This document shows, in pieces, positions 9,286 through 40,700 of a DNA stretch of 64,000 nt; the first letter of the stretch is position 1, and the number at the start of each line of letters is the position of its first letter. The stretch covers positions 1,488,001 to 1,552,000 of the forward strand of contig JAYWIR010000026.1 in assembly GCA_036172245.1 (NCBI GenBank), read 5' to 3'. The translations under genes and the position numbers were made by a program. This stretch comes from Raillietiella orientalis (Eukaryota). The notes under the pieces were generated by a model. It made no database searches. It saw nothing but the letters and a program-made list of their open reading frames with translations, and was not told the DNA's origin.

Positions 9286-9792
9286 TGTTTTTTTTTTTTC
9301 CTTCGACGCCGAGTGGTGAAACAGCGGCTTTCAAGTTGATGACCAGTCGAAAGGCCATCATTAAGCTCTGATGTACTTCACAGGTACCTGTGATTTGTAA
9401 TGCGATGTAATGCTGTGTTACTATGTGTGAAATCCATAGGCCGATGAGTAGGTATGTAGCAGCTGCATGTGTAGACACGATTCTAGTTAGAAGAATAGAT
9501 TTAGATTTATACAGCTGAATTTAAGCTGCTGTATTTGAATGTGACCTTCTCATCCAGGAAGAGGAAGAGAAAACTGAATGGACATGTGCCAGCTCGGTAC
9601 CCCGATGTGGAAGGGACTGGGGAGGAGTGGATGAAATTAATAAATAAATAGGGAATGCGATGATTATCACCCGGTTATGCTGAGACATTTATTACGTAAA
9701 GCAATAAAAATACATTGGTGGCAGAACCCTTGGTTCTACTACGTGCAATGAATCTGCCGAAGTGGCTCGCAGACCTACGAGGTCCCCTTCGG

Positions 9793-10087
9793 AGGATCGA
9801 CTGAACCAGGCTCAAAGGCTGTTCTCATGGAACTCTTCTCCACATCAGACCTCCAGGATCTCACTGGAGTATTTGCTACTACCACCAAGATCTGCGCCGA
9901 CGGCGGCTCCAGGCGAGCTTGCGCCCAAACCCTTCTGCGCGCACCGTCGCGACCCTCCTACTCGCCGGAACCTGAGGAACCTGCCGTACTCCGGAACGCG
10001 CCCGGAAGGCAGGAACGGCTCTGTCCCGGCGGCTGGTATAGGCTCGACGCTTGAGCGCCATCCATTTTCAGGGCTAGTTGCTTCGGC
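9793..10087 (-). rRNA. 28S rRNA: 28S (LSU) rRNA fragment / pseudogene, from just upstream of D6 to just before the D7a hidden-break region
   Basis: Minus strand reads GCCGAAGCAACTAGCCCTGAAAATGGATGGCGCT...GAGTAGGAGGGTCGCG...GCAGATCTTGGTGGTAGTAGCAAATACTCCAGTGAGATCCTGGAGG..TGTGGAGAAGAGTTCCATGAGAACAGC...TCAGTCGATCCT. These are conserved LSU core motifs. The expansion segment can still pair (GCCGGGAC/GTTCCGGC, CCTGCC/GGCAGG). No other rDNA seen nearby. Confidence 0.95.
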
Positions 10088-10088
10088 G

Positions 10089-11900
10089 TGGGGCAAAGGG
10101 AAACAAAAACGAAAAAAAATAAAAACACAAAAACAGGGGAGGGGAAATTTCACACGGGGGGGAGGGAGGGAACCGAGGGAGGGATCACAGTACGCTGTAT
10201 GGAATCCTCTGCATCCTATCCGGGATGCTGGCAAGTTCTGTTCGTATAGCGTTCAGGTGGGGTCATCTCCAGGCGGTCTTCAGGAAGATCCACGCCCAGT
10301 GGATGGCGTCCCTGCTATTCTGGCCTCTTCTTCCCGTGTTCCAGGCCGCCTTGATACCGCGGAGATAGCAGAGGACTGCGAGGGTCGCGGCTGGCGGCAA
10401 TGCAGCTCACTCACGAAGAGGCGTCTGAAAATGTATCTGGACCGCCCGCAGGAATCCCAAGGGTCGTCTTTAGACCATTCCTAAGAAGATGGAGGGCAGC
10501 ACAGTCCACCAGCAGGTGAGGGAGGGTCTCCTTCTTCCTGCACCTGTCGCACTCTGAGCGTCTATCCTCCTCCCGTGTCCAATGGTGAAGGCGTTCTTTC
10601 CACGGAATACCCCATGCAACACCAGCAGCGCCAACTCCTGCCACCATAATCCCCTATACAACACTCACACCTCGTGCCGCGCGCGTGGAGACCACAGCCA
10701 CATGGTCGCCAACGCGGACTTAGCATTCCGAGGTCCTCCTAAGGTCCTGCGTCGGTCAGGAAAAGGAGGAAGAACCTGTCCACGACAGTCCGGAGGTTCC
10801 CTACGGTTGCAGGCGACGGAGTGGGAGAGTGGTCTTCACGGATGGACGGCGCTGGTTGCCCAGGTATTCCCAGCGAGCGCTTCCTGCGCGTGGCGGAGGA
10901 TCGCCAGCCAGCAGGCACCCGGCAATCTTGGAGGAAGGAGTGTTCCCCCTTCGTGCATGCCCCTCGAGGGGCGGCAGGGGCAAACCACCTCTGCGGTATG
11001 CTTCAACCACTGTCTGCCGCTCTCCCATCCGAGTGTGGCCATCAGGTCAAGGTTTCCGGTGTCCTTTAGCAGCCACTCGGGAAACCCCTGGTGTCCTCTC
11101 GGCAATTCTGCATCGCGCGCCGAAACCCGCACCTGAACGCTCCACTCGCCCGCTGCTGGGCGCTGGGGACGCTTTCCCTTCCCTCCTCTTCCTCCTCGGT
11201 TACCCGCTCGTCTCCCTCTCCGCTCTACCCTGCGTTCTGGATTTTCGACGGTGCCATCATTATGGTCTACTCCTGTATGTAGTTGGGATTTGTAATGGCC
11301 GCTGAACCGGGAAGACCATTCGTCACTCCAGACACTCCTGGTTGGTTGGGATGCCTGCCTCTTCGAGAGACGGGGACGACTTCATTCCCATCTCTCGGAG
11401 GGGTAGATGTGGAGGGACTCCCTGCAATTCGGCTAGGAGGGAAGAAGGGGAGGTGGAAGAGGGAAGGAGAATCTTGGAGCTCGGCGAGAAGATTCCCAGC
11501 TATCACTTTCCGTTGCCCATCGCTAGAGCGTGGGACTCCTCGTCCACGAGCTCTCGTCATCGTCCCTGCGGTCGCGCGCTCAGCGAGTTCCAGGACACAG
11601 CTCGCGATCTTCCTCTTCATCCCGGGATCTTTTCGGCAGCTTCCCTCCACAGGTTCCCTTAGCGATAACGCGTGACTCTTCCTCTCAGGAGAACAGCACA
11701 CGCGGGGAAGACAGTCCACGTAGATCAGGGAACGACGCGACCAGATCTCCAACGTCTTTCTTGGGGGGTGAGTCGGAGAAGGCAAACGAAGGTTTGTCCC
11801 TGATCCTCAGCTGGCCCAAGAGAACTTCGTCCATCCACCTCTGCGTCCTCGAATCCCTGGCCCTCCGAGCTATCTGGAACTGCTCACGCTCTCCCTCAGC
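10089..11900 (-). mobile_element. L1/Tx1-clade LINE, 3' part of ORF2 plus T-rich 3' UTR (copy A), decayed
   Basis: RKVIAGNLLA...FHLPFFPP (post-RT), WQELALLVLHGVF/PWKERLHHW, and zf-RVT CDRCRKKETLPHLLVDC (10411..10647). C-terminus HLNAIRTELASIPDRMQRIPYSVL* with stop at 10185-10187, then a T-rich UTR. The 5' boundary is approximate. Confidence 0.7.
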
Positions 11901-13379
11901 TCCTCATCCATGAAGGAAAGACGAAAGGAGCGGGAAGGAGCTACTCCGTTTCCCGAAAGGACTGCTGTGGCTCCGCCTACGCCGCCACCACCACTGATGC
12001 CACCGTCAGCACGTCGGTGGCATCAGTGCTCATCTCCTCTTTCGCCTCATTCGGCAACCAAGTGGCAGAGTGGCGACGTTTGCTTGCCTCCGGAGCACTT
12101 TCTGTGTGGACAGTAATCATGATGACTTTTCCTTCGGGAGAGAAACGGTAATTTGGTTAGAAACGGTCTTCTTCATAGAGGACTTTGACCAAGTGACTTT
12201 TCTTACTGCCAGCCCAGTATGCCTCCCGAAATTCGGCACGCGCTGCCTCAAACGTTACAATCCTCCGCATTATCCTTATCTTCTCAACTACAGGAACCAG
12301 AATGGTTCCCGGCTGGAAAATCACCCGGAAGTCACCGGCTTCTCCACCGCTGCAGCTTCCACAAAACTTCGCAAAACTTCGATGAAAACCGGTTGAGACT
12401 TCCTGCGCGAAACAAACAAACAAACTTACTGCCTGGAGAATATTCCAGGATACACACATGCGTGCGTTTCACACAACATTCCTGCGAAATAGATCCCAGC
12501 ATCCTCACACAGCGGAGGAGAATCGGCCGATCCTCGGATGTTTTCCGAACCCGGGGGAAGAAGAGGCCGAAAAAGAAAGGAGGGCGAGGGGGAAAGGAGG
12601 AGGGGGGCATCTCATCGTCCTAGTGAACTTCGGCGATTTTCCGGCTCCGGATGGAAGCTGCCTCTTCGTCTGCACGTCGCGTTCTGTGCACCATCCCGAG
12701 ATTGGGATGCGCAGTCACGCCCGAACGCGAGCCGAGCGCGGGAGAGGTCGTCGGAAGATGCGCAGGAAGGCGCGGCGGAGAGGCGTGTCGCAACGGATTG
12801 GGGGCAATGGCCACGTGGACGCGCCCCTTCTCTCTTCCGGGAAGTCTCCACGGCAGCGAGTGGACTGCGAAGCACGTCTTTCAGTGGGATCGTAGAGGCC
12901 TTGGGAGATGGCACAGAGTTCCCTCGTGCTCCTGATGCTCGGAGAGTTCCTTCTGCAGCTGCCGGCGTCGCCCCGGAGATCGGCTCCTGCTCCCAGCGGC
13001 TACATTTTGATCACGAGGTCTCGGAAGCTGGGAAGTACCAAGGTCTTCAGTGGGGGCAGCGCGGACAGTGGCAGTCAACTCAGTCAAAGTTCCCATAACG
13101 TGCCAGACCAGTATGAAGAGCGAAATAGAGACTCCTCCTTTGGAAGTGGTGGAAACCAATCAAACCAGCTGCTGCACTCGGATGACTTCTTGTCAGTACG
13201 CCAGTCAGACTCCGAGGCCGGCGAAGAGAACTACGAAGAAAACATAGAGGATGATTATTCCGAAGCCATCCTTGCAGAGGCAGGAGTGTCCCCGAAATCT
13301 ATTCTGATCGGTAAGGAACCTTTGATATGCGCTGGAAAGATCGCGAGGCCTTCCCCACGCCTCAGGGGTCATCCTGGAG

Positions 13380-14990
13380 ATGCCGGTGTACATCCTACTG
13401 CCGTACATTATGCTGAAGTCGTTCGTGAAAGGAAGGAGCCTTCCTCTGACTTCTGACCTCCGGCACAGGTCTCCCGACGGTAACGAAACCTTCCGCCATG
13501 GGCGGTCTTCGGGGCAGCTGGATCAATTCTTCGATGCTATCGAGGTGAACAAATTGTTTTCTCATGGTTTAATCGATCAACTCGATCCTGCGATGTGTGG
13601 AGCGCCGCCGATCGGCGGAACTCGCGGTGTGGAAGTGACGTCACCCCGCCTTGCACTCGCGCAGAGCGGTCGATGCTTGGGCTGCAGGAGAGTTGCCTAC
13701 GCTGCAACGGATGCCGACGGAAAAAGAGACCGAGAGGCCGCGTATGTGAGCGAAGCCTCGTAGATTTCAAGTGCTTTCGGTGCAGCATCACAGGCGGAAT
13801 GATGGCTCCGGTGCGTTGCGGGCCATCCGGCGGTCAGGGATTGCGGATCGATAACACGGTTAGCTACGTGCCCATGGGGTGCAGACTCCACATCATCTAC
13901 TTTTTTCAACTGAATGTGATCTGCAATCGGTGAAGGGTTTCTTTCGAACCATCTTTGCCAGAGCGACCAGACCTCACTGCCGCTCGCTACTTGACGGTCT
14001 TGAAGCAAGAATCCGAGCTGAGGCCTCTTGGAACACAAAGAAAAATCTTCGGGGAGGAAGTGAAGATCGCGATTGTGAAACTGAAGGCTGGCAACTCACC
14101 TTTCATCCACTCCTTTTCAAGCTGACGACCTCCGATGTTAAGATGGAAAACAGCTAGCATGCAGTCCTGACACGTAGAATCTCATCAGAGCCCGTGGAGC
14201 TCCTGAGTTGGGAACGTTTTCCACCATCCTCCTGAAAACATCACCCAGGTAGAGCATGCACGGAGAGAGCAAAAACGGTGCATTCAAAGCGCCGGATGAT
14301 CAAAAGAACGGTTAGAGCCGCGCTGACGTCTCTGCAAGACTTGGTCTCTTCCCTTATGCTCCTTGGAACGGGTTATTTCTCACCCCACTGATGGTCAAGC
14401 GCTATGGGGCTCTCTTTGATCTGCATGCAGGAAAAGTCCTCTTCTGAAAGATGGCAGTGGCTTCTACACAAGGACAAGAGAAAGGCTCCCAATTGATCCA
14501 AAAAGTTAAAGAAGTTGGTCGACTCAACTTCCTTTGTAAGGTCGTTATCCAGAGAGCAGCGATCGAGTACTTCCATGATGATGTGCGATGACAGGAGGAT
14601 GTGATTCTCTGTCCAGAAAGGCAATGGTGATGAGATGCATTTCCATGGGAGCCACCGCACACTCGTGTCACTGAAGTCTTTATCCTGATCCGCAAGAGCT
14701 GGGGAACAAATCAGTCTGAAACATTGATGGTAGCATCTAAGAGATTTCCTCACCTCTTCAAGACTGTTGTTGTTGCTGTTGTTGCCATTATTATTATTTC
14801 AGCTTCCTTCTGGTTCGTGCCGGTGCAAATTCATTTGCCAGCTGGTGGCGGAGGAAGAAGACTACAGCCCGATCAGCAACCAAGTCATCAGCTTACTGAG
14901 GTGGGTACTCACGTTCCATGTTCTTCGAGATGGTTTTCTCAGTGGTATGTGCATGGTCCAGTGTAACGGAAAATTCTTTCCGGGTTAACG
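13380..14990 (+). mobile_element. hAT (Buster-like) transposase remnant
   Basis: Motifs in order across frames: PLTSDLRHRSPDGNETF, AYAATDADG (second Asp), GCRLHII (C..H), EASWNT (RW-like), TQGQEKGSQLIQKVKE...EYF (LQG segment), and dimerisation-domain-like SWWRRKK / DYSPISNQVISLL...RDGFLS. TIRs and 8-bp TSD not found. Confidence 0.55.
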
Positions 14991-16559
14991 GAAAGGTGCC
15001 CCAAAGGCAGAGCGCTACTTCATCTGGGGCAGCAAAAATTGGCAACTGGAAATCTCTGTGCAGGTCAAGAGCTTACACAGACCTGCCGTGATAGATGGTA
15101 CTTCAGAGACGCGCTACAAGAGGGTTGGGAAGAAAGCCAGAGTTGATTCCCTTCCGACGTTAATCGGATTCCCAGGATGTTTTCATGACACATTTCTCAT
15201 CTTGTCAGGGTTTGTCGTAGAAGAGTGCACTGGACGCGCAGAGCGAGACTGAGTCTTCCCCATCTCCACGGGAACTCGAGAGGATATTGATCGATGCCAT
15301 CGAGCAAAAGAAACATGCTGGAATGTGAGAGCCTCGAGAGAGCAAGTGAAGGTAGTGCCAGCGGAGACAGCTGGCGCAGAAGCCCTGAGACATGCCTTGA
15401 CGGGTTCGGAGCGGAACACAAGCAGAAGAGTGGCTCGCGAATGGAGCACCCTGACTTCGAAGAGCTCCTGATGACGCAGTGATCTCCTTGAATTGGGGAA
15501 CCTGGACCGGAAGTTCGAATATGTGTGTAAGGACGCGAAAGAAAAAAGACGGTGAAGGATCGCGGCGGGAAGAATGCGAGAAAACGGGGATTTGATACGA
15601 AGGACTTCGCAGGTGAAAGAGACGAAGAGACGAGAGGCGAGCAGACTGCAAACATGAGGGTTCCCGTCCGTTTCTCTCCTCTCCCCCATCAGCTCTCCAC
15701 GATCTTTTGGTGTCCCCTGATCCTAGACCAGGAGGCCCTGAGCGGTGCCCGTGGCTGTCAACTTCGGACGAGGCGAAGATGCGAAGCCCGGAACATGGTT
15801 GATGGGGCAGAAGCGAGGATCACGCCTTCTGTAAAGGCAGAACCTCACCTGACGTGGGATCCTCGTAAGATACAAAGTCTTCTTGCAAGATATGGATTTA
15901 AGAAACCTCTAGATTTTCTCTGTCCCTTGGAGAGTGGCTTAGCTGATGGAGCGAGGCTTCTTGAGGAAACAGCGGAGGGAAGCACAAGCACTCCCATGGT
16001 TCCCGAGAAACAGAAAGACGCTTGGTTCTTCCTCAGGAAGAATTGTTCGGAAGCGACTGAAAGGAGGAAGCCTCAAAGTTGGAAGTTTTGAAGTTATGAA
16101 GAAGCTGGAAAAGTTGTGAAGTGGCTGCCGGAGCTGGAGATCAGCCAATCAGCAGTCGAAGAGGTCAACTAGAAACCAAACCTACAGAACAACCTTTGAA
16201 AGGTTCCTCAGGACGAGAAACGTGTTGAAGACGTGCGGCTACTCATCAAGAAGTCCGGATCAAAAATCTGCTGGTTGTCATAGGAACCGAGAGAGAGGCA
16301 AATCTGGGAACATCCTGAAAGTGAATGTCGTAGTATTGCTCGTGTTCTCTGGTTCACGCTCCTTTCATCCGCACTTGGAAGGGTGAAAGATGCTCCCTCC
16401 CCCCACCGAGAAAAAAAAAAAAAGAAAGCCAGCTGAAGCTCTGATTCTCTCATGATCCAAAAATAACGAATACACATAGGAGGGTACAGATCGGATGCTG
16501 TGGAAGTTGTGATGGTTTTCTCTCTCAGAGCGCGAGCTTGAGAACATTCACTCCCCATC

Positions 16560-34400: not shown

Positions 34401-36517
34401 CTCTGCGTTGCCCGGCAGCCCGCGGCAACGCAGTGAGGCGTTGCCATTGGCGCCCTCTCTTGACTTCCCCATCCTCGACCCTACGTCTCTCTGGAGGCTG
34501 TCGGAGTCCGAGGGGACGAACGGCACCGGACTGTGAGGCCGCCTATGGGGTGCGTCTACGAGGGCGAACGTCCCTGGGAAGAAGCGTGCGCGGCGCTCTG
34601 AAGCAAGTGTGCCCCTCCGCGGGCTCATCCCGGAGATGCGAGGCCGGGAGTGGGCGTGGAAGGAGGGGAGAGTACGGCATTCCGCCCGTCGTCGAGCGGC
34701 ATTGGCGCGCTAGGAGTTTCGAGTTCGTTCAGCTGACGTCACCAAACCCGAAGGCGCCGTCTGCGCCTCCCGCGCTGCCCTCCCCTCTCTCGTTCGCAGA
34801 CTTAGAGACGTGGCCGGGCCGACACGTTCGTGCGCGACCCCTTCGGAAGAGAGCGAAGTACCGGGGAGCACGACCAGCGACGGGTTCCAGAAGAGGAAGG
34901 GAGGGAACAACGGCCGAAAAGAGGGGGGGCAAAGTAAGGAGCCCCCAGGCCCCTAGGGAGGATCATGCTTGCTCATCCTGGAAGCGCGGCAGCTTGGGAG
35001 TTCCTGTCCCTCCCCCTTCTTTCCCTGGCGTCCGTCCCCGCAGTGTTGGGAAGCTCAGGGACTTCTCGCCTCGCGCCTGCCTGGATCCGTAAGCTTTATG
35101 GCCTCATTTAGACCCTGGGGAGATCAACGCTCCACCTCTCTTGCTCCCTCAAAAACGGGAAGCAGCCTCCCTCTCGGATGCTGGATGTCTCCGGATCAAA
35201 GTTTCCCGCGGAGGTATCCGAGATGTGCAGCCCCCGGGTCTGTGTGCGTGGCAGGGGAGGGGCAGGTCGCGACCTCTAGGCGGTCCCGCAGTGCAAGGGC
35301 AAGGGTCAAAGAGGGGAGCGGAGCTCCTCTCGCCGCGCGCCCGCCTGCCATCGCCGGTGGAGGTGACCACAGGAGTTCTCCCTGCCTCCCAAGTGGTGAT
35401 CGCTCCCTGGGAAGAAGTCCGGCAAGGAGAGACTTCCGTGATGGGCGACTGACCAGGTTGCCACGGGAAACGCCCCGCGCGCTCTCCCTCTAATGCCTTG
35501 CGTTCCTCAGAGAGACGGCGTTCTTCTTCCTGGATTGCTTGTTCCGGAGGGGTGAAGAGACTGAGGGGGAGGGAGGAAAAGGGGGGGGAAGCAGCACTAC
35601 GGAGTCACACGGAGTTTGCCTGAAGACTTTCGTTTCCGTGGAGATCGCTCCGTTCTCGTGCACGAGCGAAGTCCTTAGGACTAGCTGGGATCCTCTGGCG
35701 GGGAAATGGGGGAAGGGATGCTGCTGACCCCGCGGGATGACTCGAGAGGAAGGCTGCTCTCCCCAAGGACTCTTCCGGCAGCCGGCAACTCGCCGTTTCC
35801 GGTTCCTGCTGCGACTCCTAGTATCATCCCTGTTCCCATGGCAGTGGAAACAGTAGCAGCATCCTCTGTCCGCTTGTTCCTTCCCTCTCCCGGTCGCAAA
35901 GGGTCGCTACTGCCCGAGTGGGAGGAGACGACTAATTTCCTGCGGCAGGGAGGAGAGAGCCAGGAGAGAAGAGAGGAAGAAGATGCTCGTGGCGTAGGGC
36001 TGCAGGCGCACAGCCCCCACCTTTGGTCAGCCTCGCGCCTCGGAGGACCTGGCGGAAGGGAAGACGAAAGGAGGAGGAAGAGAGAACGTCCGGCTGGAAG
36101 TCTCGGCCCCACGCCCTGCTCAACCTCCTCCCTCCCTCATCCTGCCCCTTTGACTCCAGAGCAGCATCCTTCCGGAGTCGCGAGCGCGACCTGTTCCCGG
36201 TCGCCCCGCAGGTGAGGAGGTGGACAACGGAGAGGACCGCACGCGCGGTCGCTGCCCATGGGGGGCTGTGCAGGCGGCGACAGGGGAGCGAACCGTTTCC
36301 TGGTCGGGAGCGGCGGATTCTCTGGAAGAGTCCGGGAGGCGCTGCTCGCGAGCGAGCTCTCTAGGAAGGGGGACAGGTGGAGCCCAGCGAGCCGTCTTGA
36401 TCCTTCGTTCCCTTCTGCCCCTCTCCCTACCCTGACGCGCGCGCGCGAGAAAGGCACGGAGGGAACCCAGGGCAGCGCGCCCGCACGCGTGTGCGAGTTC
36501 CGACTTCCCCGGAACGG

Positions 36518-36571
36518 AAAAAAAGAAAAAAAAAAAAAAAAAAAAGAAGAAAAAAAAAAAGAAGAAAAAAA
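36518..36571. repeat. Poly(A)-rich tract interrupted by G
   Basis: 54 nt of A with a few G, read directly. Confidence 0.9.
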
Positions 36572-37729: not shown

Positions 37730-40700
37730 TCGCTGCAGCTTCCCCGGCTCGCAGGGGGAGCGGAGCCGCGCAGCAGCTTCTCGCAGGAAGAGGGAGGCTG
37801 CGGCGAGGGGAAAGGGCGGGAGGCAGGGAACAGGGAGCCCGCCCAGCGGGTATCGCTGAGGAAGGATGGAGGGGAGATCCGAAAGATGCGGATGGGCATG
37901 CTGCCGGCAGGATGGCTGCAGGGGTGGGAGAGGGGAGCGGCTGGCGGTCCTGTGGTCGCGCACAGGAGACGCATCCGGAAGGAGTGGTTTCTAACCCGAT
38001 CGGTGACGCTCGTTCCCTCTAGTGGTCCAAAGGTGGTGAGGGTGCGCAGAAGAGCACGAAAGTGAGAGGAAGGAAAGAAAGGGAGAATGGTAAGGAGAAG
38101 GGGGTCCTTTCAAAGAATCTCTGGACCTCGGGAATGGGTCCTTGCTATTTCCCCGGCGCCAAAGGAGGGGCGCAGCGTGGACGTGGACAGACGGCCTACT
38201 GCAGAGAGAGAATAACGGAGGAAGCATCGGCAGCGCCCTCGCTGGGAAGGGGGCGCACCAGAGGACCACTGCTCCTCGCGTCGGGAGCGCTAGCGGGACG
38301 ATAGGACATTGGCAGCGAGAGTGAGGCGGCTCCGGCGGCATTCATCAGTAGCAACCGTGCTGCTGAGCGCCCAGTCTTGGCCTTCCGGGGCCCCGGGAGG
38401 CGCCGAGAGCAAAGAGGAAGGAGGGGGGTGGGAGAAAGGGAAGAGGAAGAGCAGATGGTGTTGTCGGTGGTGGTGGTGGAGGAGGGAAAGAAGAGGTGGT
38501 GGCGGAAGAGGAGGAGGATGGGAGGAGGAGCATGCCATCCATCCAGCTGGAGGCATGCCAGCCTCAAGTCCTGCTCCCTCTGCTTCATCTCCTCTTCTCT
38601 TCCTCCTCCTTTTCCTCTCTTCTTTCCTCCTTCCTTCCTTCCTCCACCTACATCCCTTCGGCGCACGACAGCTCCGGGAGGCTTCTGACGCTGCGGCCGT
38701 TTCACAATTCCAGGAATGTCGAAATCGCGGATCGTTCGCAGGGATCCGCCCGTTCCGCGGCCGGGGCAAAGCTTTGTCGTGATACAACGGTCGGGGAGGC
38801 CGAAGGGAAGCGGCGGCCCCCTCCCGAGGTTCCCGGGACTCTGCGGCTTCCTTTCTTGACGCGTAAGCATCCGAGAGACGGGACGGTGGCCAACGACCCC
38901 CAGAGGCCATCCTCCTGGAACCTCTCGGCCCAGTGTCCGTCGTCGAGGGCGCCACTGAGCCTGCCCACGCCTCCCGGGCCAAACCGATGGCGGCGGCGGC
39001 TCCGGGATCGCACTCCCCCTCCCACATCACGCGCTCCGCCGGATCGAGCGCGCGCGCGCCCCGCCCGCGACTCCTTCCCTTTGGACGGACGCCCGCGGCT
39101 GCTCTTCGGAGGGCGAAGGGGCTCTCGAGAGATGGTGGACCCCCTGGAGCGCGCGCTCCGAGGATCCCCCCAGAGCTCTGCGCGAACCAAAAGCGCGCCG
39201 CCGCCGCCATGGCGAGCGCTGCCCGCTCCGGCGCCGCGGAGATTGCGCCAGCGCCCCGGGGGGAAGGAGGGAGACATAGCACACTGCCCCTCCGCCCTAG
39301 CGGCCGACGGGCGCGGCTGCTTTGCGCCCCCTCTTTCCCCCCAGGATAGAGGTGGTCTCCGGGCACCGGCTGGCTGGAGCGAGCAGCCGCCGCCTCTGCC
39401 CTGTGCGAGTTGGCCTCGGGGCCTTCCGCGCGCTTCGCGCAGCAACAGCCGGGGCGATTTCGTCAAGCCCGCGTGAGAGCGCGCAACCTTCACCAGGAGG
39501 GTCCAGGGCGAGGACAGCCTCGGGGAGCGGAAGGATTCCATTTCTCCGTTTCCCGGGAAACTCGGTTCGCCCTGGCTTCCCGGGAAGCAGAGAAAAGGTC
39601 AGGAAGGACGGTTCCTCCAACTCGGGGAGGGTCCCTGGCGGCGGGTTACAAGTTTCGGCGCAAGCAGCAGACACTGCCACGTCGTTTCCTCCTCCATGTT
39701 CCTCTCGACCCGCCATTGCGCGGCAGCGAGGGACGAGGAGCCGGGATTTCCCGTTCCTTCCCCTCCGGAGCGGAAACGAAGGAGGAGAGGAGTGGGGTGG
39801 ATGGGAGGCTGCTCCGATTCTTTTTCCTCATACGCTCCTTCTCGACGCACTCATACGGGGCTGCTGCGGCTGCTGCTGTTCTCTGTCCGGCACGGCTCTG
39901 CCACGAATCAGAACCCGGGAGAGTTTCTCGAGGGCTGCCCCTGCCTGCTCTCCAGTTTTCGCGACTCGGGAACGGAAATCGACGGCCCCAGGGACTGCGT
40001 GGGCGTATGGGAGCACTCATCTCTTGCAGGTCGTGAGCGCAAGAAGCAGGAAAATCTTGCGCCCGGAGGAAACGTGACCACGTCGGGCGTCCTTGAAGGA
40101 CGACTCTTATGATCACCGCTGCAACCGATTTCCTCAGGAGGGGTGGAAAGAACATGGCAGGTCTCGAAGGAACGTCGGCAAAGTTCTGGAACGTTCCTCG
40201 AAGCAAGTGGGGGTCGAGTTTGGACCCCGCCGGTGTTGTAGAGGGGGAAATTGTGCGGATCCCACGGGATGCCGGAAGGGGCTTGCAGTTTCCGGAGGTG
40301 GATGGTAAAGAGAGAGAATGGACATGGCTGTACAGAGGTGGCGGGTTGGAGGAGGAGGAGGAAAAGAAGCAGTGGTGGTGGAGGAGGTGGAAGGGATGTT
40401 CGGCAGGTTCGGGAGGCTGACCGAATCTTCCACCTTCCATCGTGTTGAAGGAAAGATCACTGCTTGAGGTCCCGCCGATGGGGGCAACGGGGATTCGCGG
40501 CGCATGATCACGGGTTCCCCCAGCGTGTCGAAGAGACCGCTAAACCGTAAGGATCTGCGGACCGCGGGGATAGATACACTAGTGCGCGCGTATAGTCCAG
40601 TGCATGGTGGCGCATGTACAGGCCCGAGGCGAGCTGCCCTCTGTGCTCGCTCTACGTATCTAGTGGATGTAGGGTCGGATTCTCCTTGCTCTGCGCATGC

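Follow-up and report, generated by a model that had tools for sequence, protein, structure and literature searches.

Introduction

The targets of long interspersed nuclear elements (LINEs) that are specific for ribosomal DNA (rDNA) lie in conserved stretches. How such an element can carry part of its target gene to a new place has been described for R1 of Drosophila, ectopic copies of which sometimes carry up to 14 nucleotides (nt) of downstream 28S sequence (Stage and Eickbush 2009, PMC2718515). Many of the ectopic R1 targets reported there share bases with the 28S gene, and in the authors' account the R1 template RNA carries flanking 28S sequence that anneals to the nicked target (PMC2718515). 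Here, we describe a locus in a 64,000-nt stretch of DNA from Raillietiella orientalis (GenBank assembly GCA_036172245.1, contig JAYWIR010000026.1, positions 1,488,001 to 1,552,000; hereafter the window, to which all positions refer), in which the tail of a likely LINE runs directly into a fragment of 28S ribosomal RNA (rRNA) sequence. As in the ectopic R1 copies of that report, downstream 28S sequence stands directly after the LINE, outside the rDNA, at a target sharing bases with the 28S; unlike in R1, for which up to 14 nt are given, the 28S part measures 295 nt (PMC2718515). The rDNA residence of R1 is shown by many copies, whereas here we infer it from one. Within the 28S gene, the R1 site is located far 3' of the 28S start at this locus, which falls at Rfam position ~1290.

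Three further systems invite comparison. In L1 3' transduction, transcription reads through a weak LINE terminator, and the products carry a terminal poly(A) and are integrated at nick sites rich in T. As in this process, the downstream flank of the parent would here have been copied together with the LINE and stands 3' of it inside the same candidate target-site duplication; unlike in L1 transduction, poly(A) is absent, and the nick site suggested by the insert reads GGATCG/CCAGCC on the bottom strand. The 28S/LINE-1 chimeras reported from primates (bioRxiv 10.1101/2025.02.02.635956) likewise join a sense 28S fragment of comparable length (median 269 nt) to the 3' part of a LINE, but in that report the 28S stands on the 5' side of a LINE with a terminal poly(A); here the two parts come in the reverse order. 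Finally, R2 elements of fish carry 28S-derived sequence at the LINE 3' end, as this locus does (Kojima et al. 2016, PMC5035012). As described there, they have a restriction-like endonuclease, lie inside the rDNA and share diverged, family-wide 28S-like segments (PMC5035012), whereas the present locus combines a LINE with a CCHC-type tail, a position outside the rDNA and a nearly unchanged 28S piece.

Results

On the minus strand of the window, a 5'-truncated, decayed LINE tail (10088 to 10893), which consists of a remnant of the C-terminus of the second open reading frame (ORF2) and a 3' untranslated region (UTR), is followed by the 28S rRNA fragment (9793 to 10087). The 5' limit of the LINE part is that suggested by a candidate duplication (see below). 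Both parts are co-oriented and meet in a flush joint with neither poly(A) nor filler; the junction reads ...TTTGCCCCAC|GCCGAAGC, the 28S opening as GCCGAAGCAACTAGCCCTGAAAATGG.... Because the sole LINE tail and the sole 28S piece detected in the searches made are those that meet here, chance adjacency is unlikely. The locus is a real, cleanly bounded LINE-28S chimeric retrocopy and as such adds one more case to a known kind of event.

The limits of the 28S part were determined by alignment to the 28S of other organisms. Contigs carrying conserved 28S words from four public sequencing runs were aligned onto positions 9600-10300 at 80% likeness, and their loose ends depart from the window sequence at 10087 and at 9793, which gives a fragment of 295 bp, running from GCCGAAGC... 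to ...GTCGATCCT and including one variable segment. Across the 5' boundary, real 28S reads ...ACTCACCT|GCCGAAGC (loose ends at 10087), and the sequence around the start of the fragment is highly conserved, as would be expected of a homing site. At its 3' end the fragment reads ...TCAGTCGATCCT. Past 9793, real 28S reads ...GATCCT|AAGTCCCC..., the relatives' 28S continuing with AAG..., whereas the window reads ...GATCCT|CCGAAGGGG. In line with these limits, the minus strand matches the Rfam model LSU_rRNA_eukarya (RF02543) with 79.9 bits (E=1.4e-18; gathering score, 50), the confidently aligned core covering large subunit (LSU) model positions ~1290-1545. This match was obtained by searching 2 kb; Rfam searches of the whole window miss the fragment owing to their speed filters.

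Contigs of close relatives span 9793-10079, the variable segment included. Compared with the fragment, record 1 of run X1 differs by 8 letters and 13 gap letters, 12 of the latter belonging to one insertion, and record 3 of run X2 by 9 letters and 1 gap. Overall, the fragment is ~97% like the 28S of two relatives over 284-287 nt, even in the variable segment, and departs from both of them at 6 of its 295 places. At positions 9834 and 9920, nearly all aligned 28S contigs agree against the window. Because the window differs from the relatives' 28S at a few places, these two among them, the fragment has aged slightly in place and is not live rDNA; judged by such comparisons, it is a genomic pseudogene piece of moderate age.

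The fragment is isolated from other rDNA: Rfam gave no other rRNA match within 2.5 kb on either side, and no 28S was found upstream of the LINE tail in the window sequence searched. None of the contigs from the four runs covers 9600-9792 or 10152-10300. A small contig depth from the metatranscriptome runs X6 and X7 over 10104-10151, an A/T-rich part of the UTR, probably reflects low-complexity matching. The locus itself was looked for in 7 public sequencing runs, none of which contained half of its words; the shares of 0.05-0.07 that were found correspond to conserved 28S words. A 28-base lineage-specific 28S word had 0 matches in public metagenome contigs and genome contigs, and a 21-base word across the junction had 0 matches in public metagenome contigs.

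Upstream of the 28S fragment, LINE-like coding sequence is recognisable only from about position 10700. An ORF of 80 amino acids (aa; 10411-10653, minus strand) holds the pattern C-x2-C-x7-H-x4-C together with ET..HLL, corresponding to the CCHC zinc knuckle of an ORF2 C-terminus (CDRCRKKETLPHLLVDC, 10501 to 10551, minus strand). In Pfam this ORF, one of the 23 scanned, matched zf-RVT with E=0.0057 and 17.7 bits, under the cut-off of 27.5. The protein language model Atlas placed the zf-RVT cluster at rank 2 (score 0.93, 164 shared features), and 17 of its 30 hits fall in the zf-RVT set; a relaxed CCHC pattern occurs just twice in the six frames of the 64-kb window. Read in three frames, the text runs ...LLVLHGV / PWKERLHHW..CDRCRKKETLPHLLVDC.. 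/ ..IKAAWNTGRR..TAWR*, with at least two frameshifts and one stop over about 150 codons, so that it is spread over at least two frames. The likely ORF2 stop, a TGA at 10263 to 10265 on the minus strand, is in another frame than the CCHC ORF. It is followed by a pyrimidine-rich stretch of 176 nt without poly(A), read from the sequence as the 3' UTR (10088 to 10262, minus strand; ending ...TTTGCCCCAC) and unmatched by the 28S contigs. Together, motif, profile and language-model matches make it likely that the remnant is the tail of a LINE.

Searches for the rest of the element and for its relatives were negative. Pfam gave no reverse transcriptase (RT) or endonuclease domain in 23 minus-strand ORFs of at least 60 aa up to 15.8 kb, and a [YF]xDD motif was absent from 81 minus-strand ORFs of at least 25 aa overlapping 10260-16500. 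The missing RT domain reflects a 5'-truncated copy and says nothing on the LINE family. No second copy of the tail was found in the window by blastn or tblastn. A phmmer search with the 80-aa ORF against 1.84 billion representatives returned 3 hits, all of them tandem-repeat proteins without LINE domains, and a word-indexed search of longer proteins with the same ORF gave 105 candidates, none with E<=1.

In part, these results agree with the initial annotation. It had described a co-oriented LINE stop codon and T-rich UTR running without poly(A) straight into 28S sequence, which is confirmed by the sequence, the Rfam match and the 28S contigs, and it had written the end of the 28S homology as ...TCAGTCGATCCT, exactly where the loose ends at 9793 place it. 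The joint is flush as proposed, but lies one base to the right of the mark given there. The remnant had been called an L1/Tx1 LINE; a LINE tail is indeed likely, but a tail with no RT or endonuclease domain does not establish L1/Tx1.

To look for a target-site duplication, the zone upstream of the LINE tail was compared with the zone downstream of the 28S piece. An exact 10-mer, CGATCCTCCG, is shared between 10903-10894 and 9799-9790 of the minus strand, and these are the candidate 5' copy (10894 to 10903) and the candidate 3' copy (9790 to 9799). The first 7 bases of the downstream copy (9799-9793) are at the same time the last 7 bases of the 28S piece. Altogether, 10-mers that straddle the junction in this way have 5 copies on the whole minus strand, of which only that at 10903-10894 is within reach, the other four being 34.8-60.4 kb away. 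When 12,470 positions were sampled, a straddling 10-mer had a copy 300-1500 nt upstream at 2.1% of them, which corresponds to an empirical chance of 0.021.

Suggestive though not proven, the duplication would bracket the LINE tail and the 28S piece as one insert of ~1.1 kb, composed of LINE sequence (10893-10088) and 28S sequence (10087-9800/9793) within ...GCTGGCTGG CGATCCTCCG AAGGGGACC.... In target-primed reverse transcription, the DNA end freed by the nick anneals to the 3' portion of the RNA, and the paired bases open the downstream duplicate. The 7-base overlap of the downstream copy with the 28S end is thus the geometry expected of target-primed reverse transcription.

Two further arrangements around the insert were considered. 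Read on the plus strand, the A-rich tract could be the poly(A) of a retrocopy of antisense 28S; this reading was rejected, as there is no flanking repeat beyond an A-rich 8-mer. In the 3' flank, an inverted 9-mer at 9757-9765 (plus strand), CTGCCGAAG, equals the 28S sequence that spans the 5' boundary. It is probably due to chance, with its neighbouring bases ~65% like the loose-end letters of X6 and X7 as judged by eye, but it could be a trace of snap-back or twin priming.

The wider window has few recognisable features. No Pfam domain was found in 260 of its 269 stop-to-stop ORFs of at least 110 aa; eight of the remaining nine had no domain at E<=0.1, and the ninth (15200-15688, minus strand) fell outside the scan. 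When GC was screened by codon position in the 25 top-ranked ORFs of at least 150 aa, no strong third-position bias appeared, and ARAGORN detected no tRNA in the window. Although its GC content is 46-67% and open frames are long on both strands, the window seems to hold few genes or to consist largely of lineage-specific sequence. At 38434-38648, a purine-rich arm (GGA/GAA-type) faces a pyrimidine-rich arm in a low-complexity hairpin with 7 inverted-repeat pairs of 75-93% complementarity, which on either strand is matched weakly by Rfam models of several unrelated microRNA precursors. In the most GC-rich part of the window lies a short tandem array that is A-rich (36517-36571; period 12-15, about 4 copies).

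Discussion

With a probability of roughly 45%, we read the locus as a 3' transduction: a LINE transcript that read through from a parent inside a 28S gene would have been copied back into an ectopic site and truncated at its 5' end. In this scenario, the parent LINE would lie in sense orientation within the 28S gene, its 3' end bordering on the 28S at ...CACCT|GCCGAAGC (Rfam LSU ~1290), and, having neither poly(A) nor a terminator of its own, would let transcription continue into the 28S. A LINE reverse transcriptase would then nick an unrelated chromosomal site, and the DNA end so exposed would pair with CGAUCCU, 7 bases of the RNA that lie where the D7a expansion segment begins. From there, synthesis would extend through 295 nt of 28S and on through about 0.8 kb of the LINE tail before stopping, and staggered cutting would leave the 10-bp duplication. 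The parent may have reached the rDNA by site-specific insertion or by a single accidental one; the two parts probably arrived together, as the copy of a single RNA, which hints, without proof, at a parent element in a ribosomal RNA gene.

We prefer read-through because it needs no arbitrary internal switch to account for a flush joint at a position where the 28S is conserved and because the order of the parts is the order that read-through yields. The stronger decay of the LINE text than of the 28S text would fit a passive co-transcript, if only weakly. Several points weigh against this reading. The locus is single and known here as one copy, and the joint may be an internal switch point instead of the 3' terminus of the LINE family. 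The LINE identity consists of a sub-threshold Pfam hit, a motif and a language-model hit, while two large sequence searches gave no LINE relative, and a pyrimidine-rich UTR without an A-tail is unusual for L1-like elements. Moreover, the duplication measures just 10 bp and would be met by chance about 1 time in 50, and 295 nt is about 20 times the length of the 28S tails reported for R1.

An RNA template switch, which the initial annotation had named as its alternative, is the strongest of the competing explanations, although we consider it unlikely. Here, reverse transcription would have been primed on 28S rRNA through the 7-nt microhomology and 295 nt copied before a jump at U|GCCGAAG to the 3' end of a LINE RNA; were the host to have a hidden break, a 28S cut there could have supplied its 5' half as the template. 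Such a switch would give the same insert geometry and the same duplication, and rRNA greatly exceeds any co-transcript in abundance. That LINE reverse transcriptases jump between templates end to end is established, according to work cited in PMC4494074, and one-event 28S/LINE-1 chimeras are reported at 18 primate loci, with a median of 269 nt and mostly in sense orientation (bioRxiv 10.1101/2025.02.02.635956). In the chimeras documented in that report, however, the foreign RNA lies 5' of the LINE (bioRxiv 10.1101/2025.02.02.635956), whereas here the 28S lies 3' of it, which would require priming on the rRNA. With the 28S in this position and no poly(A), the locus does not have the structure of a template-switch chimeric retrogene of the U6/L1 or 28S/L1 type. 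A switch would also have to leave the 28S at an internal conserved position, and no microhomology to the LINE end is visible there, with C standing against T at the joint. Finally, at least two frameshifts and one stop in the LINE, compared with 6 differences in 295 places of the 28S, slightly favour a dead, passive LINE over the RNA of the enzyme itself, which is a weak argument.

A juxtaposition at the DNA level, be it the remnant of a dispersed rDNA unit with its LINE, filler from the repair of a break, or two independent insertions, appears improbable. Microhomology at a joint is typical of end-joining repair too, and tandem or displaced R-element and rDNA pieces are described outside the rDNA of Drosophila (PMC2718515). 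Against this, there is no other rDNA within 2.5 kb, the candidate duplication encloses both parts, and two independent events would not yield a flush, co-oriented joint. More improbable still is that the 28S piece was captured earlier and is a fixed part of the 3' UTR of the LINE family, where it may help annealing to the rDNA. While this would agree with the absence of a poly(A) between UTR and 28S, the ~97% likeness to the relatives' 28S, the variable segment included, implies a recent capture, whereas the 28S-like part of the fish families is described as less similar to 28S than the true flank (PMC5035012). An assembly artefact that joined an rDNA read to a LINE is very unlikely, since, even though the contigs aligned at the joint are 28S of other organisms only, the piece is just 295 bp long with unique sequence on both sides and carries changes, at 9834 and 9920, where nearly all 28S contigs keep their letter, which would be unexpected of live rDNA reads.

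Returning to read-through, the end of the 28S piece bears on how far the RNA reached. In 28S rRNA, D7a is opened by CCTAAG and closed by CGAAAGGG, and the hidden break falls within its AU-rich part, as described in PMC12880105. A second report places the break between conserved markers and D7a on the exposed surface of the ribosome (PMC6925239). The 28S piece at this locus stops after the CCT of CCTAAG, i.e. at the start of D7a and upstream of the mapped breaks. An alpha-fragment of 28S would have its 3' end in the AU-rich D7a, downstream of CCTAAG, but the end found is ...GATCCT. Because the last 7 bases are shared with the duplication, the 3' end point is better explained by microhomology priming than by an end of the RNA itself, and at most the locus suggests D7a or its vicinity as the place where the RNA had its 3' end. 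The initial annotation had the 28S piece end near the hidden break and proposed that a co-transcript cut at that break could have been retroposed out of the rDNA. The candidate duplication is consistent with retroposition of one RNA, but the hidden-break cut does not hold, as the piece ends where D7a begins and the breaks map inside its AU-rich part. A precise deletion of D7a was considered as well, given that CGAAGGGG, which follows the 28S end, resembles the D7a-end motif CGAAAGGG; it was rejected, as X1 shows no joint to a second piece downstream. The X1 contig extends some 700 nt past 9793, and no joint for a second piece is listed downstream of that position.

A wider interpretation would assign the LINE tail to a lineage so far undescribed, whose ORF2 has an end of the CCHC type, and would let the processing or exposure of D7a, the region of the hidden breaks, set the length of the 28S tail in such escapees from the rDNA; we regard this as doubtful. 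As it stands, the locus is one well-defined chimeric retrocopy that is useful as a query and is not yet evidence of a new system. The 28S start is a possible new homing site, which one copy cannot show. If a parent lives in the 28S gene at this position, it would occupy a new homing site and probably represent a new lineage among the few rDNA-specific LINEs, and such elements would carry hundreds of rRNA bases to new loci, not a dozen. If, in addition, D7a processing or exposure sets the length of the tail, 28S tails of this kind could serve as fossil markers of rRNA processing.

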